A DNA stretch of 63,922 bases, filler included, from Ionaspis alba (GCA_964255285.1; 3 parts of 3 records of this genome joined end to end with filler, not necessarily neighbours in it), one strand, 5' to 3'; shown: positions 8,460 through 63,922, counted from the whole stretch's first letter. Notes: a model not told the origin generated them from the letters alone. Translations and numbers: made by a program.

Positions 8460-9988
8460 ATGGCTCCATCCGCTCTGTTCTCTTCTCCTTTCGAGAATGG
8501 TAGCCGCTCTGGTCGTCTACGGCCATTGTCACTAGACCCATTAGGAAAGAGGAAGAGAGATGAAAATACAGATGAGAATGATTTTGGTGACAATACCTCG
8601 AACGACCCTCTCGTTTCACCATCTCATTCTTATACTGCGACAGAAACTCCAGCTCTTGAAACTGACTTGTTAAAGCAATACGAAACCGCCAGACAAGCTC
8701 ATGAGTCTCATTTACCTCAACACAGNNNNNNNNNNNNNNNNNNNNNNNNNNNNNNNNNNNNNNNNNNNNNNNNNNNNNNNNNNNNNNNNNNNNNNNNNNN
8801 NNNNNNNNNNNNNNNNNNNNNNNNNTAAAGCAATACGAAACCGCCAGACAAGCTCATGAGTCTCATTTACCTCAACACAGCTTCCCACACGCTGCTCTAA
8901 GATCACTACGTGATGCTGCCAGATTGTACAACAGCTCCCAACTCGAAAAGGAGCTTGCAAACCTCAAACCTCCGCTGCAGTCATCTCGTTCTTCTCGCGG
9001 CGCGGGGTCTCTTGGTCATCAATATACCGGACTGAAGCAACGTCATTTGGCTGTTTTGACTGCTATTGTGCATAAGTCTTTGCTGCAAGATGACTATGTT
9101 CGGGCTGGTCGTGCATGGGGAATGCTGCTCCATGCCGAGGTTGGTGGCCGGCCTATGAATATTCGCTCCAATGGGCTCTGGGGTCTCGGTGCAGAGATCC
9201 TCCTTCGGAAAGGTGCACAAACCGTGTCCTTGCATGTAGATCGTCACCTCACGGACTTTGGCTCCGAGGACACAAATTCGTCACAGGCAGCAGCACGGAA
9301 GCTGCGTGCTCCGCTTTATGATCAGGAAGCATTCGAGAATGCTAAGCGCTATTATCAACGCCTCATCTTGCAGTACCCGTTCAGACGATGGGACCCTGAG
9401 CCTATTAGCTCATTGCACTTCTATCCCGCCATGTATAGTATCTGGATAAGTTCGGTACAAGAACATTCTCAGCAGGAGCTCGATAGCCTAGGACAGGAAA
9501 GGCACGCCAGTAACAGCGACGATGGAAGGGGTTCGAGCCATTCCGACAGTTCGGATGACCATCTTCGTAAGGACGGTATTCGAAAACGTGCTTTGGAACG
9601 AGCGGAAGAGATAGCGGCCAGCCTAGAAGAACTTCTTCTTTCGTCTCCGTACTCGGATGATGCCACTCTATGGAAACTAAGAGGCAATGTGGCCCTCTGG
9701 GTAGGAGACTTGTGTGTCGAGCATACAGCTGCACCAGCCAAAGACGAAGTAGACATTGGAAAGGAGGCAGGCGAAGTATCGTTGACAGAGGGCGAGGACG
9801 ACGAGTCTGATTCTGTTCAGAGAACACGAAAACATCGCGAACGAGACGACTACGAGAGAAGTCTTGTCGATAGAGAGACTCAGAGGGAACGAGCATTCCA
9901 GGCCTTCGAGACTGTTAGAAGAATTGTGGGACAGAGAGACGAGACAGACCATCAACATTTGGACGACCAAAAAAGCCCCGAGCCATAG
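8460..9988 (+). CDS. RRN11: RNA polymerase I-specific transcription initiation factor, Rrn11-like
   Basis: Motifs RHLAVLTAIVHKSLL..DYVRAGRAWGMLL, IRSNGLWGLGAEILL and YYQRLILQYP. The ORF is continuous once the 100-N gap and its 55-nt duplicated flank are collapsed. Confidence 0.75.
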
Positions 9989-13255: not shown

Positions 13256-15896
13256 ATGAGCCAATACTTCGACTTCCCCCAAGACCTGCAAGGCGCTCAA
13301 AGAATTAACAATCATAACAACAATAACAACAGCAGCGGTCAAAATCCGCAGCCTCCAATATTTGATCACGGTCATGAGCTCGCTCCATCTCAGTTCCTTC
13401 CCAACGTCAACTTCCAGCAATCATTTAGTCCGGACCAAGAAACCAGTGTGTCGGGTCCAAAGCCTGCTGGTGCACACGCACGAAGGAGACTCCCATCCGG
13501 AAGTGATCATGTCAAGCATCGTCGGACTCGAAGTGGCTGCTATACATGCCGAAGCCGAAGGGTGAAGGTTAGGACTCCACCACATCCTAAGAGCCATTAG
13601 TTCACAGCTTACATGCGTGGTGTATCAGTGTGATGAGAGTCGTCCTATCTGTGAGCGTATGGGCTCCAACGCCAGCACGTAAAGTATTATCAGCTGACCA
13701 ACGTCCAATATACAGGATGCAAGAAAGGATCCCGTGAATGTGTGTATCCGGAGCCTACTTCTGCGGCCACATCAACATCGAGTTCCAAATTAAATCAGGC
13801 GCAAAAGGCTTCGCAAGGTAGCGACGAGTCATCTTCCGGCGAATCCGAAGATGAATCGACAGAGGCATCACCCGTCCTCGGGAGAGCTCCGTCTGCTCAA
13901 TCGGACGACTCGAAGTCTCAGAGTACTAGTACCTCGGGTCCTACCAATCGAGGAACTGCAAAGAGACAGAGTCGGCAATCGCTGAATCAAGCTCGTGCTG
14001 TACCTAATCTATCTAGTCATACCGAAGAGAAGAGCATGTCACCATCCACTACGGACGACTCTAGCATACCTTCCACGTCCCGGTCTGCTTCCGTATCATT
14101 CAATCAACCTGGTACACACTCATCGGTCTCGACGAACACATCGCAGGGGCCCTCTCGTTGGTCACATCTTTCAGCTGACAAACAGTTCTATCTCAATTTC
14201 CACCAGAACTACATAAATTACCATCACTACTTCTTCAAGCACGATGCTTCGCACTTCACACATTCGTTATTACTAGATGCTGCATTAGAATACCGACCTC
14301 TTCTCTACGCCGTCGTTGGCTTTGCTGCATATCAGGTGACGGTGAGAAAGCGGAACGGCAAGATAGAAGATTTTCTACCTTACTACCACAACTCCGTTTC
14401 TGCGCTACGAAAATCCCTATCTGCTAGCCAGAAGCACACGGATCATACCATCTTGACCATTCTGCAATTAGCTGCGATCGAGGTACAGAATGACCCAGTT
14501 TGCTCCACTTGTACTTCGAAGCTCAACAGACAATAGGAGTACTTAGGGGACTGGGTCAACTTGCTCGAACATCAGAGAGGTGCCTACGAAATGCTGCTCG
14601 AGCTGTACACTCCGCAAACCATCATGCAAACGGAGACCTCACGCAAGATTCTGGCCTGGTACTCCCGATTCGATCTATTTGCTGGTCTCATGGGTGGAAA
14701 CGAAATGATCCTTGGCCGGGAATGGTTTCTCGCCTGTGAAGAATACCACACGAACATGGCTCTGCAGTATCCCGACAATCTAGAATACAGCCTCGGCAGC
14801 TACATCGCCGGTTCACGGGTCCTGGCAATGGATATGGCTCAGCTGTTTGCTCAATTACCCAAAGGAGCCATCTCGATGGAAGACTTCCGGGTCGAAAACG
14901 AAACCATCAGTCAGAGAATACGGAATCGCAAACAGAGACTGGATCCCTTTCTAGCGCAAAAGCAACTCTTGGTCATGTCCTTCGAAGGAGCTCCACCAAG
15001 AGATCCAGACAGTATCGTCGATCCCTACCAACCGGGACTGCTGTATCGAGGACCGTTGTGGCCAGTGAACTACATGGTTATCGATTGGCTTGCTATAGAT
15101 GCTATGCACAGGAATCAAACGGCGATGATTTTCCAACAGCCTCAACCAGCGGACGTGACACACCTCGCCATGAAACAGTGCCAGCTTTTCGAAGCTATCG
15201 AAATGTGGCCCGGGAGTCCGGCCGGCGCCATCTTACCCGCTCAAGCCAGCTTAAGTCTCGTGTGTCTCTTTCTCCCCAAGGACGAGAAGCACACGATGTG
15301 GTGTCGACGGAAACTGGCCAAGATCGAAAGTCTAGGGTGAGTGTTTTACCACCAGATCACTCCCCGGCCTCAATCGGCCCTCACTTCGCTCCTGAGACAG
15401 CAGACGAGCTGACACATCCTCAAGCTACATCTTCCCCCCGACCTTCCGCGCCGGCCTCATCACCCACTGGGACAAACCCGACCTCCACACCTGGTGGCTC
15501 CCCGACTCTCAAACCCTCCCTCCCATCATCCGTTCCATCCGCGCCTTCATCGGCGAACGTACACAAAAGCCCCGCGACCACACCGGCGAGGAAGTCCGCA
15601 GTATGAAAGGCCTTTTCTCGACGATCAATCTCAACGAGTCGCCCAAGGATAGTCCCGAGAGTAGTGGCAGCGTGGGCGGGGAGGTGCCGATGATGATTGA
15701 TGGGAAGGTTATGGGGGCGTTTGAGGAGGGCGGGTTTGTAGGCGCGGGATGGCAGCAGGATTTTAATACGCTGGGGTTGAATGTGCAGGGCGGTGGGCAG
15801 GTTATGGTTGATCATGTGCCGGGGTGGGGGTCAGGGCACGATGTGGAGAGGGAGAATGTTGGGCATGGAGCGCCGCCATGGGGCTTTGGACGTTAA
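13256..15896 (+). CDS. Zn(II)2Cys6 fungal transcription factor (about 5 exons)
   Basis: Spliced N-terminus RTRSGCYTCRSRRVK/CDESRPICE/RCKKGSRECVYPE forms a C6 zinc cluster, followed by a fungal-specific TF domain (LLYAVVGFAAY...ILTILQLAAIE/EYLGDWVNLLEHQRGA). Confidence 0.92.
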
Positions 15897-52169: not shown

Positions 52170-54200
52170 ATGGCGATGAAGACGGCTGGAGGCAATTCTG
52201 CCTTTCACAATTTCCACAACGACTACGCTCACATCGCCGATCCGAATGAGCGAAGGAGACTCGCGCTCGCGGAGATCGATAAGGCGCCTTTTGGGTGGTA
52301 CCATGTCCGAGCTGTGGTCGTAGCTGGTATTGGTTTCTTCACCGATGCCTATGATATCTTCGCCATCGGTCTGGTCACCAACATGTTGGGTGTGGTTTAC
52401 TTTCACAATGCCAGCAAGCCCGGAATTATCGATACGAACGCAGATACTGCCATTAAGGTAGGAGAAGCTTCCACTTCGTCAATACACGAAAGGTGAGCTG
52501 ACAGCAAATAGGTCGCTACTTCTGGAGGAACTGTCATCGGTCAAGTGGGGTTCGGTGCTCTCGCAGATGTCGTCGGACGGAAGAAGATGTACGGTCTCGA
52601 GTTGATCCTCATCATCTTCGCAACCCTCGCCCAGGCTTTGACCTCCAACTCTCCATCCATGTCCCTCGTTGGTCTGATCATCTTCTGGCGTGTGCTCATG
52701 GGCATTGGCATTGGAGGAGACTATCCACTTTCTTCGATTATCACCTCTGAATTCGCAACCACCAAGTGGAGAGGTGCCATGATGGTCAGTATCAGAATCG
52801 CCCCGAAGATCCTTTCGATTCCTTCTCTAAAACTCCGCGCTAGGGCTCCGTCTTCGCCATGCAAGGTGTCGGTCAATTCGCCGCCGGTATCTTGGCCTTA
52901 ATCACCGTATCTGGCTTCAAAGACAATCTTTCAACCGCAACCAGCTTCGCAACCTGCGACGGAATCTGCGCCGAGTCCACCGATAAGATGTGGCGTACCA
53001 TCATCGGTTTCGGTGCCGTTCCCGGCTGCATCGCTCTCTACTACCGATTGACCATCCCCGAGACTCCTCGCTACACGTTCGATGTTGCGCGGGATGTCGA
53101 GAAGGCCGGTGAGGATGTCAAGGCCTACATTGCTGGTAAAGCCGAAGGTCACCCCGATCAGATCAGCCGTGCTGCCGCTCAGCAACAGGCTGTCGTTCAG
53201 CTTGAGAGCCCCAAGGCCAGCTGGGGAGATTTCTTCCGCCATTATAGCAAGTGGAGGAATGGAAAGGTTCTTTTGGGAACAGCTGGATCGTGGTTCTTCC
53301 TCGATGTATGTGTGATTTCAACGAATGATCCTATTTTCTACATAATATACTGACTACCATCAAGGTCGCTTTTTACGGTCTCGGTCTCAACAACGCGGTC
53401 ATTCTCACGGCTATCGGATACTCTGGAGGCAAGAATGTGTACCAGATCGTAAGCGACACCCCTTAGGCATTTCTCCCCAAAGCCCTCACTAACGTAAACC
53501 AGTTCTACAATACCGCTGTCGGAAACATCATCATCGTCTGCGCAGGCGCCATCCCAGGCTACTGGGTCACAGTTGCCACCGTCGACACCATCGGCCGCAA
53601 ACCAATCCAGTACATGGGTTTCATCATCCTAACGATCCTCTTCATCATCATCGGCTTCGCCTACGAAAAACTGAGCCCCAACGGTCTCCTCGCTCTCTAC
53701 GTGCTCTCGTTAGTACCACCTTCTCCCCCCCCCCACTCTCTTTCTGCCTCAAACCCAACAAAACTGACCCTCCAAAAAAAAGTCAATTCTTCTTCAACTT
53801 CGGCCCCAACGCCACAACCTTCATCGTGCCTGGCGAATGCTTCCCGACGCGGTACCGCTCGACCTCTCACGGCATCTCCGCCGCATCAGGCAAAGTCGGC
53901 GCCATCGTCGCCCAAGTCCTGATCGGCCCCCTGCGAACCCGCGGCGCGACTGCCTCAAACCCCTCTCCCTGGCTCAACCACGTCATGCAGATTTACGCCC
54001 TGTTCATGTTGCTCGGGATCTTCTTCACCGCGCTAATCCCGGAGACGAAGCGCAAGACGCTGGAGGAGTTGGCCGGTGAGGTCCCGGGTACGGCGATGTA
54101 TGATCCGGTCAGTGCGGGACATAATCGGGAGGCTTATGCGAAAGATGGGACGGGGAGTCCGGGTGGGAGTGGGGAGGTGAGGGGCGATGAGAAGGTTTGA
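52170..54200 (+). CDS. PHO84: High-affinity inorganic phosphate:H+ symporter (MFS), multi-exon
   Basis: AFHNFHNDYAHIADPNERRRLALAEIDKAPFGWYHVRAVVVAGIGFFTDAYDIF; signature GGDYPLSSIITSE; QFFFNFGPNATTFIVPGECFPTRYRST. Confidence 0.97.
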
Positions 54201-59145: not shown

Positions 59146-59974
59146 GTGGAGGTTCGACGTTCGAGAACGGTATCAAAAAATTGGTGATGCTGATAAGCTA
59201 ATTTTGGGATAACAAAGCGAGAGGTTGACAACCGGGCCTCTGCAATAGAGCTAGAAGGTATATATGGGGTTTGCGATTCGGACTTCGGAGCTCTGGTAAG
59301 CGCCGTCAGCCCTTATTTATAAGCATGGGCCTATCTCCGGGGTAGGCCCATCGGAGCATTTGTTCTATAGTCATTTGGCCGTGCAACACCTCTCGGGGAA
59401 AGGGTAGCCTCGTTTCCAACATCGTCTCGAAGGTGGTTCGAGCCTGAACAAACGGACGGCTACGGAACAAACTTATGGAGAATAATTACCTCATTGTTCT
59501 AGCATTCTTCCTTATCTCCACAATGTGACTATTGTCGTAGCCGAGGGACCGTGCATACAGCCACAGCGCCTCATGCTCTTAAGCGAAACCAGTCACTTTC
59601 CCTCTTTCGAGGCGTCATATTCGATGGCACTTCTAACGAATCGGATTCTTTCAATCATCACATTTTCCTCCGACAGTTTGCAAGAGTAGTGAGATAGTAG
59701 GTACTTATCGCTCTCCGCATTTGAGGTCATTCATTGCCGCTCCGTTGCTTCACGTCTCTTCGGTCTCCTAGCTCGATTCATCCAAGGCATCAGCGTCAAT
59801 CCTTCGAACTCGGTGGGCCGAGTCTTTGCACCCCAGAACAGAAAGCGACTGGTACATCGCCCTCATCGACGCAACCTCTGGCTTTCGTTAGCATCATCAG
59901 GCATACCACATCCTGAAGCTCAAAACGTGGAGACAGAACCGCTACTCGTAAAGCACGAGAGGCAGAACTCCACC

Positions 59975-60943
59975 ATGACCCGTCGCATAGTCTACAGCGG
60001 CGCCCTCGTCGCCTTCCTAGCAGGTACGTACCATTTTCTAAGACGCGCCTCAACAAAAGCATTCGTCTGACCCACGACAGCGAGCGCATTGACTCTAGCC
60101 AGCATAATTATCCCGCGCTGGATAAGCTGGGACAGCCAAACAGTACGTCTATCCTTTTTCGCCCCTCCTCTCCCAACAAAATACCCAGTAACCCAAGCTT
60201 ACCGTCCTCCTCTCTTCCTCAACAGCCCAGCGGCTCCCGCATCCACTACACCTACGGCCTACACAAACGTTGCTCCTCCCTGACCCACAGCTGCAGCTAC
60301 TTCCCGCAAGATGAAGACTGTCATAGCGAGGACCGCTACTTCTGCTCCATGTGGCGGTCTGTGGGGTTCCTGATGTCGTTTGCGGTGGTCATCGAGGGCA
60401 TGACACTTATCGCTTTCCTGGTCATGATCGCGGGTGGGAAGCAGAAACGGGAATTTGGTTGGAAGGTGCTGAGTGGGTTGCTGCTGCTGGTGGGCATGAT
60501 ACAGTGTGCGGGGATGTCACTGATTGTGAGTTATTNNNNNNNNNNNNNNNNNNNNNNNNNNNNNNNNNNNNNNNNNNNNNNNNNNNNNNNNNNNNNNNNN
60601 NNNNNNNNNNNNNNNNNNNNNNNNNNNNNNNNNNNCTGCTGCTGGTGGGCATGATACAGTGTGCGGGGATGTCACTGATTGTGAGTTATTTCCTCCCCTC
60701 GGAAATGGAGGGAGAATAAAGGGGAAAGCAAGGGTTTTAAGGGATGAAGGGCTGATGTTGGGGCCACAGGCTTATTTATATGATAACGACGATCGGTTTT
60801 TTCCCGGGTGGAGACTCGATACGTCGTGGATTCTGTGCACGGTTAGCTGGAGTGTGATGGTACTGTTGGCGGCGGGGCTATCAGCGTCGGCGTTTTTGTT
60901 GAGTCCGGAGGGAGGATACGAGTTGATTCCCGATGCGCATTGA
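59975..60943 (+). CDS. Four-TM claudin/Sur7-like membrane protein (4 exons)
   Basis: Spliced MTRRIVYSGALVAFLA/..LTLASIIIPRWISWD../HYTYGLHKRCSSLTHSCSYFP..FCSMWRSVGFLMSF../AYLYDNDDRFFPGWRLDTSWILCTVSW; the internal gap is a duplicated-flank artefact. Confidence 0.82.
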
Positions 60944-61258
60944 AGGGAGGTGTGATCCGATCAAGACGAAATGTTGCTAAGCGTTGATACCCTGGGAGGC
61001 ATCTTGTTATTGCCTTCCAGTGTTGCATTGCTTGCCTTAAGGGGTGGAATTATTTCCAGTGAAATCTGTTCGGTAGATTTTTAGGTCGTAGATTGCTTTT
61101 CGATATCTAATATAACTCTCAACGATTAGAGTTCTCCCAAGGCCACATAATGACCGAATCGCTTGATAGAGTTCAGTCGCATGTAACAATGAATGCATGC
61201 ACGACTTACACAATGTGTAAGAATTATAAGTTGACATAAAAAAGTTTATTCTTGAAAA

Positions 61259-61417
61259 GCAGGCTTGGCCGAGCGGTCTAAGGCGGCAGATTTAAGCCTG
61301 AAGTTTTCTTCTGTGAACTCTGCTATCCGAGAGGATGCGTGAGTGTGAGTAACGATGATACGGAAAATTTTGATATCCATCAACTAATCCTTTCCAAGTC
61401 GAACCTCACAGCCTGCA
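61259..61417 (+). tRNA. tRNA-Leu(UAA) with a canonical anticodon-loop intron (61297-61317) and a second, spliceosomal-type intron in the T loop (61345-61398)
   Basis: Acceptor GCAGGCT/AGCCTGC; D arm GCC-GAGCGGTCTAA-GGC; anticodon stem GCAGA/TCTGC with TAA at 61293-61295; variable arm ATCC-GAGA-GGAT; T stem GTGAG/CTCAC; T loop T|TCGAAC after removal of the 54-nt insert; discriminator A. Confidence 0.93.
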
Positions 61418-61435
61418 AAATATAATTTGGATCTC

Positions 61436-61440
61436 TTTTT
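61436..61440 (+). terminator. Probable RNA polymerase III terminator (T5) of the tRNA-Leu gene
   Basis: TTTTT run starting 19 nt after the discriminator base. Confidence 0.55.
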
Positions 61441-61744
61441 GCCAGCCCACAGATGAATAGAGAAAGATTAACAACATGTGGCGGGATGACCTTTTACTCC
61501 TACTGGTTTGTTGCCGAGGCTGCGTAGCTGTTTCCTTTCGCCTTCGGTCTAATTGGTCATGGGATATGGAGTAGAAGTTTGAAGCGTAGAGTCGTCAGAG
61601 GCAAGAAAAAAAGGACCGCATGTACAGAACGGACGAGACTCGATAAAGTAACCTGTCCTAAGGGAAGGGGAAACCTGTCAAAGGGAAAAGATCCACAGGA
61701 TGAAGCTTAAGTGAACATCGATCTCTATTGCTTCCTCTAGCTAT

Positions 61745-63090
61745 CTATGGTCTTCTATCCTCAATAGACAAATCCTGGCCATCAACATCCTTAACCTCGA
61801 CCTTATCAAACTCAACATCGTCACCTTCCTGCACCTTCTCGACCTCATCCTCCTTCCCCTTTATCCCCTTCAAAACGCCTCCCTTCCGCTTCGGCATAAC
61901 TCTCAAAAACGCCTCTCCCCAGTCTCCCAATTCCAACCACCTCAGCATGATCTCGCACACATGGTTCGTCGCCAGTACATACCGGCTTGTCATCTCCATA
62001 TACTCGCCAATCGGCAATCTCGCTGTTTGCATGCTACGATCCATAGCCCTCTTGTAGCAGATCCCTTTGTGCCGATTGCGATCTACAAGTCCGCCGATGA
62101 TGTACGTGGTGTAGAGTTTGAGTGTCGTCAGGATGTTGGGACTGTCGCTGGTCAAGTAAATGGTTTCGCCTGCTTCGCCAAGGGTGTTGCAGTCGTGTAT
62201 AGGCTTGTCGTCTGTGGAAGTCGTGGCATCCTGCCGCGTTGCGAACGAGCCAGCGAGGCTACCTCCTCCAGAGCCTCGCATCCACTGCTTCGATTGAGAG
62301 GCAGCCTCCACGAAATCTTCGGAGAGGAAATGCACGCCTCTCCACGAGTTGTGGTGGCCTGAGAGCACCTTGTCGAATCGCTCTTTCAGAAGTCCGTCGA
62401 AGGAGCTTACGGCTAGGTGAGCCTTGAACGGTGCTTTGTAGTTATCCGAATAGCAGCGGGTAAGTTGTGCGGCGAGGGACATGCGTTCTTTATCTAGCAT
62501 TAGTTTGTCGAAGCCACAGTCAAGGACGATGGTTATGGGCAATTGAATTGACCGAGTTTGTCGCTTCTTAGGTAATTGATTTGTCCTTTCGATCTCGATA
62601 TCAGGGCTGAAGCCGAGAGACTCTGTTATGCCAGGAATCCCCTCCCGAGCTTCACGCTTCCTCTGCTTCTTCTGCTTTGCCCTCTCTTTCTTTTTTGCTT
62701 TCCAAGCCGCTCGACCCGTTTCCCACTCTTCCTTCCGCTTCAGCTTCTTGAGCTGATTCTTAGACAGCTGAGGTGCTTGACTCGGATCTCCTGGCAGCTC
62801 TGACTCTGCTGTCGCTATTGCTGGAGCAGTAGCCTGGATTTGTTGCGATTTGTGAAGGTCACCGTTCCCCGAACTGGAGCCTTGTAAAAGACCTGACCGT
62901 TGATAGTCATGTCAGACCCATTGGCGCCAATCGTGCTCTGAGGAAGTACTCCACCATCTGTGTCCGGATTTAGGTGCCTATCCTCGTTCTGGTCTCCAGC
63001 CACGATCTTCGTAGCCATCGGTGTTTTATCAATTGAGGCATCGGGAGAAGATATTCTCCTTATCTTTGTAGGCCGCTCCTCAGCTTCCAT
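61745..63090 (-). CDS. TRM10: tRNA (guanine-N1)-methyltransferase, m1G9 (SPOUT)
   Basis: LSKNQLKKLKRKEEWE, IVLDCGFDKLM, QLTRCYS.N, IYLTSDSPNIL, YIIGGLVDRNRHKG, TARLPIGEY, VLATNHVCEIML, AFLRVMPKRK. Start MEAEERPTKIRR requires an intron at about 62893-62954. Confidence 0.93.
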
Positions 63091-63241
63091 CGCGTATGCA
63101 AAAAGTAGAGGTGTATTCAAGTTATTAGCAATTTGCCCATCGGAATATGTCCGTAGGGCTGTTTCGACCGATCTAATCACCAACCCACCATCAAGACTGA
63201 GCTTCACCTGCACACGACGCAGCCGGCCCGCGACAGCGACA

Positions 63242-63843
63242 ATGCCTCAAGACTTGCCGCCAACCGGTGGCTACGAGCCTATACAATACAAAGTACGTCT
63301 CTTTATACCCCAGAGATAATTTAATTGCCCTCGTTCAACAGCTCCCACCTCATCCATCTCAAAGCAGGGCAATTGGCTAACCCATTCCACCAGCGCAATC
63401 TCCCCGCCCGCGGCTTCCGTCCCTCGTACTACCTCCTTGCTGTCGGTTTAATAATGACCTATGGTTTCGTGAAAGTGGGAAAGGGCATTCGGGAACACAA
63501 GTATGGCTTCTCGATCCATTGTCCATCTGGATGGGAAGAAAGACAGAGCTGATGAAGCTCGATCGATAGTGAACTAGCACGAGAAAAGATGTGGGCGCGC
63601 ATTCACCTCATCCCGGTGCTACAAGCGGAAGCGGACCGGGACTTGGTGCGGAGGCATTGGGCGGACTTGGCAAGAGAGAAGGAGTTGATGGGAAAGGAAA
63701 CGAGTGCTTATAATGGGGAACGGTATGTACATGTGCTGGGAACGGAGGTGGACTCGATGTACGGATTGAACACGAGTGCTGACGTGGAGTGTAGGTTTGT
63801 GAGACCGACATTTGCAATATCGCCACAGCACATTACGAAGTAG
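63242..63843 (+). CDS. NDUFA13: NADH:ubiquinone oxidoreductase accessory subunit GRIM-19/B16.6 (4 exons)
   Basis: MPQDLPPTGGYEPIQYK/RNLPARGFRP.../ELAREKMWARIHLIPVLQAEADRDLVRR/FVRPTF. Confidence 0.95.
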
Positions 63844-63922
63844 AAGTTGCCATTGACCTCGGCAATCATGGGTCGATGGCGTTCGAATTGGGTGTACATA
63901 GTTCATACAATGCTTTCACGTT

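Follow-up and report, generated by a model that had tools for sequence, protein, structure and literature searches.

Spliceosomal introns in ectopic positions were reportedly described by Bhattacharya et al. in 2000 from the nuclear ribosomal DNA (rDNA) of lichen-forming ascomycetes. In the rDNA of Cladonia grayi, a 57-bp intron of this type is removed from RNA polymerase I (Pol I) transcripts even by yeast spliceosomes, according to the accessible text of Armaleo and Chiou 2021 (PMC8527467). Introns of the messenger RNA (mRNA) type also interrupt the U6 gene, a Pol III gene, of Schizosaccharomyces pombe and other fungi, as well as U1, U2 and U5 of Rhodotorula, and the non-mRNA hosts enumerated in the accessible portion of a 2018 review are the U6, U2, U5, U1 and ribosomal RNA (rRNA) genes, with no transfer RNA (tRNA) among them (PMC5855946). 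Splicing of tRNA, as outlined in the accessible passages of two other sources (PMC10275265, PMC12530127), is the work of an endonuclease and a ligase and is separate from the spliceosome, the two systems being treated there as unrelated and as serving different RNAs. The non-canonical tRNA introns known from archaea, from cryptophyte and chlorarachniophyte nucleomorphs and from Cyanidioschyzon merolae are likewise attributed to endonuclease removal in the available part of PMC4090602. Here we characterize a tRNA-Leu(UAA) gene (61259-61417, + strand) in a 63,922-nucleotide (nt) stretch of DNA from Ionaspis alba (GCA_964255285.1), referred to below as the window and numbered throughout over its full length. 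The gene lies in three pieces, split by an intron in the usual anticodon-loop position (I1) and by a second insert in the T loop (I2) that has the form of a spliceosomal intron. This arrangement was the subject of a preliminary description, and every coordinate and motif claimed there is present in the sequence.

The gene escapes standard finders, as had been suspected from the start. ARAGORN returned no tRNA gene on the whole window, and Rfam gave no match at gathering scores and no tRNA even at an E-value (E) of up to 10 on 61150-61550, where its sole match, a CRISPR repeat at E 9.3, was set aside as a chance match. ARAGORN also called no tRNA on the unspliced locus or on the locus with I1 alone removed. 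Excision of I2 alone yielded a tRNA-Leu(taa) with an intron, and excision of both I1 and I2 an 84-nt tRNA-Leu(taa) in whose cloverleaf the acceptor (7/7 pairs), D (3/3) and T (5/5) stems are complete, which bears out the earlier statement that all stems pair perfectly. The features of a class II tRNA-Leu are then all present, namely a long variable arm, a canonical T loop, the anticodon TAA and the discriminator A. With introns allowed, ARAGORN proposed one other candidate in the window, a tRNA-Leu(gag) with a 753-nt intron (59427-60256, - strand); it overlaps a + strand coding gene and a run of N and was taken as a false positive.

The placement and signals of I2 were evaluated against the rest of the window. 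All GT..AG stretches 35-150 nt long whose donor fits GTNNG[TC] were excised one at a time and the products scanned with ARAGORN (5,998 candidates over the whole window), and a tRNA spanning the junction arose from a single excision, that of 61345-61398. A strict test on fixed 54-nt windows of both strands, requiring a GTRAGT donor, a CTRAY motif 6-30 nt from the end and a terminal AG, was passed by one of 127,736 windows, which is I2 itself, and by five when the donor was loosened. The first AG downstream of the branch motif is 61397-61398, with none between branch and acceptor. The observation is confirmed as real and far beyond chance, and it is very unlikely that intron signals came to stand by chance at boundaries fixed by the tRNA. 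Those boundaries had been said to be unable to slide. The GT-AG rule and the canonical 7-nt T loop do fix them, and only the exact cut restores that seven-base loop; ARAGORN by itself does not fix the I2 boundary, because 25 of the 169 boundary pairs within ~6 nt are still called.

To place I2 among the mRNA introns of the same genome, introns were collected by an open reading frame (ORF)-joining test: the frame had to stay open to either side of the candidate and to meet a stop when left unspliced, and a donor, a branch motif and the first AG were required. This gave 15 rows with 180-nt flanks and 25 with 120-nt flanks, some rows being alternatives at one locus. Among the 25, the donors were GTACGT (6), GTGAGT (5), GTGGGC (4) and others, the acceptors CAG (12), TAG (7), AAG (4) and GAG (2), and the lengths 41-127 nt with a median of 78, two further rows measuring 54 nt like I2. 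GTATGT likewise serves as a donor in the window introns. The branch motif CTRAY lies 7-25 nt from their end and reads ACTAAT in three rows. I2 shows the U2-type (GT-AG) features throughout (a GTRNGT donor, a CTRAY branch, the first AG after pyrimidines and a length in range), with AAG as the rarer form of acceptor. Its host gene excepted, I2 is an unremarkable intron for this genome, and the early comparison with the genome's mRNA introns in size and grammar agrees with these rows. Two further AAG acceptors had been cited in that comparison: the one at 15422-15424 passes the ORF-joining test, whereas the one at 53362-53364 fails it, though its sequence is plausible (GTATGT ... TACTGAC ... AAG).

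Nothing in the folding of the locus resembles a tRNA-type intron at I2. The bulge-helix-bulge motif (two 3-nt bulges, a 4-bp helix and flanking helices; geometry taken from general knowledge) was placed on the I2 junctions by hand. Two of the four pairs in the central helix can form there, an outer helix between the exons cannot, and the motif was likewise absent from folds computed freely or with the tRNA stems held in place. I2 has no significant structure, its own fold of -5 kcal/mol corresponding to a z of +0.28 and being equalled or bettered by 113 of 200 shuffles. Splice loops of the Ire1/HAC1 type were considered as well and rejected, the junctions not fitting when compared by hand with the consensus as we know it. 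Lying between nucleotides 54 and 55, I2 is also away from the canonical endonuclease position 37/38. I1, by contrast, has both this position and the expected pair, nucleotide 32 (T 61291) being able to pair with intron position -3 (G 61315) by hand inspection, and on these grounds it behaves as a normal eukaryotic tRNA intron would. ARAGORN with introns allowed (-i) and I2 removed also accepts an anticodon-loop intron, but one of 12 nt at tRNA position 39 rather than the 21 nt at 37/38 that we assign to I1.

Variation at the locus was read from contigs of three sequencing runs (X1, X2 and X3; one study, none on record as RNA) placed on 61100-61600. Run X1 contains two haplotypes at depths of roughly 40:60. 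Upstream of the gene they are represented by two contigs of 191 nt, at depths of 36 and 54, with 20 differences in 61116-61246, and downstream by two of 146 nt with seven differences in 61418-61503; the flanks differ by 8-15%. Between these pairs lies a single 171-nt contig (61247-61417) of summed depth 87, with no difference, joint or indel; the nearest differences fall 13 nt before the gene and on the base that follows the discriminator. Because the haplotypes share this contig without joint or indel, I1 and I2 are present in each. Altogether, 27 differences in the adjoining 217 nt stand against none in 171 nt. If the 27 were placed uniformly over the 388 nt, the probability of no difference would be 3e-7 for the 159-nt gene, 2e-3 for the 75 intron bases and 1.5e-2 for I2 alone. 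The identity of the gene across haplotypes, insert included, argues against decay. X1 is perhaps the source sample of the window, and if so the second haplotype alone adds information; its two haplotypes may be alleles, co-occurring strains or paralogous copies. An identical contig of 239 nt occurs in run X2 at a depth of 3.2; it probably reflects a low abundance of the same fungus and was not counted as independent.

A relative's gene provides the uninterrupted counterpart. In run X3, a 10.6-kb contig from another organism (organism C) aligns to 33 nt of exon 1 with a single mismatch and carries a tRNA-Leu(UAA) that lacks both the intron at 37/38 and the insert in the T loop. Its T arm, ...GCGTGAGTTCGAAC, is exactly the product predicted for excision of I2, while its acceptor stem is different and its variable arm is shorter by one base pair (a paired change). 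Because organism C has neither intron, the presence of both varies between lichen fungi. A pattern spanning the intron (the 5' half of the T arm plus GT, a gap of 35-65, and AG plus the 3' half of the T arm and the acceptor) had no match in metagenome contigs. The parts of the Ionaspis gene and the signals around them are listed in Table 1.

Table 1. Parts of the interrupted tRNA-Leu(UAA) gene and associated signals, in window coordinates.
Feature	Position	Strand	Content	Basis or remark
Exon 1	61259..61296	+	Acceptor 5' strand, D arm, anticodon stem 5' strand, loop to nucleotide 37, anticodon TAA	ARAGORN cloverleaf after excision
A-box-like element (internal Pol III promoter)	61266..61276	+	TGGCCGAGCGG	Consensus match by hand, consensus from general knowledge
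Intron I1	61297..61317	+	21 nt, canonical 37/38 position	Placement read by hand
Exon 2	61318..61344	+	Nucleotide 38, anticodon stem 3' strand, long variable arm (ATCC/GGAT stem), T stem 5' strand GTGAG, T54	
Insert I2, spliceosomal-type	61345..61398	+	54 nt, between T-loop nucleotides 54 and 55	
I2 5' splice site	61345..61350	+	GTGAGT	Identical exonic GTGAGT immediately before, 61339-61344
I2 branch motif	61383..61388	+	ACTAAT	Presumed branch A 61387, 11 nt before last intron base
I2 pyrimidine run and acceptor	61389..61395 and 61396..61398	+	CCTTTCC and AAG	
Exon 3	61399..61417	+	T loop nucleotides 55-60 TCGAAC, T stem 3' strand CTCAC, acceptor 3' strand, discriminator A	
T5 run, likely Pol III terminator	61436..61440	+		19 nt past discriminator
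Block identical in both run X1 haplotypes	61247..61417	.		Flanking differences at 61246 and 61418

With moderate confidence, we interpret the locus as a functional tRNA-Leu(UAA) gene whose T-loop intron depends on the spliceosome, an interpretation that draws on the DNA throughout. The precursor would probably hold two introns of different kinds, and the gene itself is probably live and nuclear. The spliceosomal reading fits every DNA-level test that was run and is partly supported, drawing strength from the identity between haplotypes and from the uninterrupted gene of organism C. From the sequence we infer transcription, the polymerase, each splicing step and their order, and a function in translation. 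Briefly, transcription would most likely be by Pol III, given the A-box, the remnant of the B-box and the T5 run 19 nt downstream. The spliceosome would then take out I2, using the donor GUGAGU, the branch A at 61387 within ACUAAU and the first AG downstream, and the rejoining of T54 to U55 would allow the T arm and the D-loop/T-loop elbow to form. RNase P and RNase Z could next act on the folded body, as could the tRNA splicing endonuclease and ligase, which would remove I1 at 37/38, and CCA would be added last. As for demand, 32 of the 491 leucine codons counted over nine long ORFs are TTA; the codon is in use, and a tRNA with a UAA anticodon is therefore required.

Several observations weigh against this interpretation. 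The Pol III elements seen (consensus sequences from general knowledge) are the A-box-like TGGCCGAGCGG, the downstream T5 and a B-box that I2 splits, leaving only TCGAACC as a contiguous remnant, and a split B-box should weaken binding of TFIIIC. Runs of four T (T4), weaker than T5, occur inside both I1 (61304-61307) and I2 (61368-61371) and could end some Pol III transcripts early. The exonic GTGAGT at 61339-61344 (T stem plus T54) and the intronic copy form a perfect tandem repeat (61339-61350), that is, equal donors 6 nt apart, and in the minimum-energy fold CTCAC pairs with the intron's copy and not with the exon's. Mis-splicing is a real risk, because an equal donor lies 6 nt upstream and the fold pairs the intron's copy; use of the upstream donor would delete the 5' strand of the T stem. 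No I2-joined form occurs in the contigs of the three DNA-type runs, which are silent on expression, and a 30-mer of exon 1 had no match in metagenome contigs or, as expected, in prokaryotic genome contigs, which leaves no orthologue for comparison. The count of gene copies covers the window only, a 64-kb stretch in which ARAGORN and excise-then-scan found no other tRNA. The zero-difference block agrees with purifying selection on the gene, yet the next contig, 182 nt from 61504 and just outside the gene, is also common to the haplotypes; difference-free blocks are not unique to the gene, and divergence is patchy because this neighbour is shared. Finally, the intron interiors are invariant between haplotypes, for which selection on exons and splice signals alone is insufficient, and this calls for an extra constraint or gene conversion.

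The preliminary description mentioned neither the tandem donors nor the split B-box. The tandem GTGAGT may be a clue to how the intron arrived, with the T arm mimicking a 5' splice site. Two other origins of I2 were tried and rejected: for a repeat or introner, blastn against the window gave the self match and chance words of up to 11 nt, and the fold was no better than shuffles; for a tandem duplication, the 54 nt preceding I2 are, by eye, unlike it.

As an alternative, the locus could be a silent or dying copy of a real tRNA-Leu(UAA) gene, struck by an insertion in its T loop, no longer matured and backed by another copy that works, with splice signals that are irrelevant or lead only to degradation. 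In the accessible text of PMC4090602, insertions in the D or T arm of eukaryotic tRNA genes mostly affect a single member of a set of many synonymous genes and are regarded as marks of a pseudogene, and the split B-box, the tandem donors and the internal T4 runs would indeed make expression awkward. No second tRNA-Leu(UAA)-like contig was placed from X1, where short partial matches are easily missed, and this was not counted as evidence. We nevertheless consider a silent copy unlikely: all stems are intact, the block without differences in 171 nt (against 27 in its flanks) ends exactly at the discriminator, and a random insertion with GTRAGT, CTRAY and AG rightly placed would be expected about once in 100,000. 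An error of sequencing or assembly, with the insert absent from the organism's DNA, is of negligible probability. The window is admittedly a scaffold of draft quality, interrupted by 14 runs of N, each of 100 or 44 bases (starting at 8726, 16014, 17667, 20038, 22180, 22236, 33567, 40015, 44455, 44511, 48620, 51420, 56020 and 60536), four of which (8726, 33567, 40015 and 60536) are flanked by an exact 55-nt duplicate, an overlap that the assembler left unmerged. The tRNA locus, however, lies within a gap-free stretch (60636-63922), and the separate assembly of X1 runs through both introns in its one 171-nt contig, a check on the assembler rather than on the reads if X1 is the window's source; the X2 contig is identical as well.

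Two further explanations accept I2 as a true intron and differ in how it would be made or removed. The precursor could come from Pol II, for example by read-through from the + strand gene whose final open frame ends at 60943, a distance of 316 nt from the tRNA start at 61259, with co-transcriptional splicing followed by release through RNase P and RNase Z. The 3' end of that gene and the tRNA precursor could overlap, a Pol II origin would sidestep the split B-box and the T4 runs, and spliceosomes normally work on Pol II transcripts, as the accessible part of PMC12530127 has it. Such an origin is nonetheless decidedly unlikely, since the A-box and the T5 run 19 nt downstream are typical of a Pol III gene, spliced Pol I and Pol III transcripts have precedents in the accessible text of PMC8527467 and PMC5855946, and the conserved block reaches no further than 12 nt upstream of the gene, so that nothing ties it to the upstream mRNA. 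Alternatively, protein enzymes could excise I2, be it the tRNA splicing endonuclease at a non-canonical site or another nuclease with a ligase. The gene already relies on the endonuclease for I1, and introns in the D or T arm are removed in vivo in nucleomorphs and C. merolae, and in archaea at 53/54, 56/57 and 59/60 (PMC4090602, accessible part). The I2 junctions, however, offer no bulge-helix-bulge (two of four central pairs, no flanking exon helix) and no Ire1-type loops, I2 is without significant structure, and the full set of spliceosomal signals would be left as an unexplained coincidence, all of which makes enzymatic excision highly improbable.

A broader version of the spliceosomal interpretation is more tentative, and we regard it as doubtful in its entirety. 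This would be the fungus's sole gene for a UUA-reading tRNA, with maturation needing both spliceosome and endonuclease; lichen fungi would have put spliceosome-dependent steps into translation products of both Pol I and Pol III, possibly for the purpose of throttling translation; and the invariant intron interior would reflect a function, whether in folding the precursor or as an intronic promoter element. For rDNA introns, a throttling role has been proposed in connection with slow growth and desiccation tolerance, and the U6 gene of fission yeast has a promoter element inside its intron.

The surroundings of the gene are fungal: the window encodes CPSF100 and Rrn11, together with a poly(A)-binding-like RRM protein and a methyltransferase similar to Trm10. 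Among named relatives, the best matches to the CPSF100 are those of Trapelia coarctata (70% identity), Xylographa (68-69%), and Lambiella and Lasallia (67%), by which the host is assigned to the lichen-forming Lecanoromycetes. These relatives, together with the accessible text of PMC8527467, place it in the group with spliceosomal rDNA introns. The Trm10-like tRNA (guanine-1) methyltransferase gene (61745-62911, - strand; PF01746, E 6e-23) converges on the tRNA gene at a distance of ~330 nt, a proximity that is probably coincidence. Gene models that cross runs of N are distorted, for example that of the + strand gene at 59917-60943.

Full-text literature searches, with most subscription journals outside their coverage, returned no description of a spliceosomal intron in a tRNA gene, and as far as the literature searched shows, this would be the first tRNA to host an ectopic one. 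If the interpretation is true, tRNA becomes a new host class for spliceosomal introns, the precursor is a natural substrate that needs both splicing systems in order, and an intron can persist within an internal promoter of Pol III. The tRNA sets of lichen fungi, and perhaps of other fungi, would be under-counted, and an apparently missing isoacceptor may hide behind such an intron; excising candidate GT-AG segments and then scanning for tRNA offers a recipe for finding more. If this is the sole tRNA-Leu(UAA) gene, its splicing would be essential.

Among the systems with which the locus can be compared, the archaeal, nucleomorph and C. merolae type shares the presence of several introns in a tRNA gene, including one in the T arm, as well as the blindness of standard finders. 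According to the accessible text on that type (PMC4090602), its introns either require a bulge-helix-bulge (or a motif akin to it) or measure only 3-24 nt, and a fungal host is unreported there, whereas I2 lacks the motif and has spliceosomal signals. The tRNA pseudogenes with an insertion in the T or D arm, covered in the same text, share a T-arm insertion in a nuclear gene; unlike them, the Ionaspis gene has perfect stems, is invariant across haplotypes and carries full splice signals at exact boundaries. The lichen rDNA introns resemble I2 in their Lecanoromycete hosts, their shortness (57 bp against 54 nt), their mRNA-type signals and their position in a conserved part of a structural RNA that is not made by Pol II, as far as the available text on them goes. 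In contrast to them, I2 has as its host a tRNA of ~84 nt, presumably made by Pol III, instead of an rRNA; it splits an internal promoter element, its precursor also has an endonuclease-type intron, and its removal is a prediction. The hosts of the fungal small nuclear RNA (snRNA) introns lie within or close to the spliceosome's active site, for which reverse splicing is the usual explanation in the accessible part of PMC5855946, and a tRNA does not. These introns are nevertheless like I2 in interrupting a small non-coding RNA (a Pol III product in the case of U6) in its most conserved segment, with canonical signals and an otherwise unconserved interior, and the precedent of U6 in fungi, invoked at the outset, agrees with the same source: fission-yeast U6 is spliced, and Pol III transcripts can therefore be spliced (PMC5855946).

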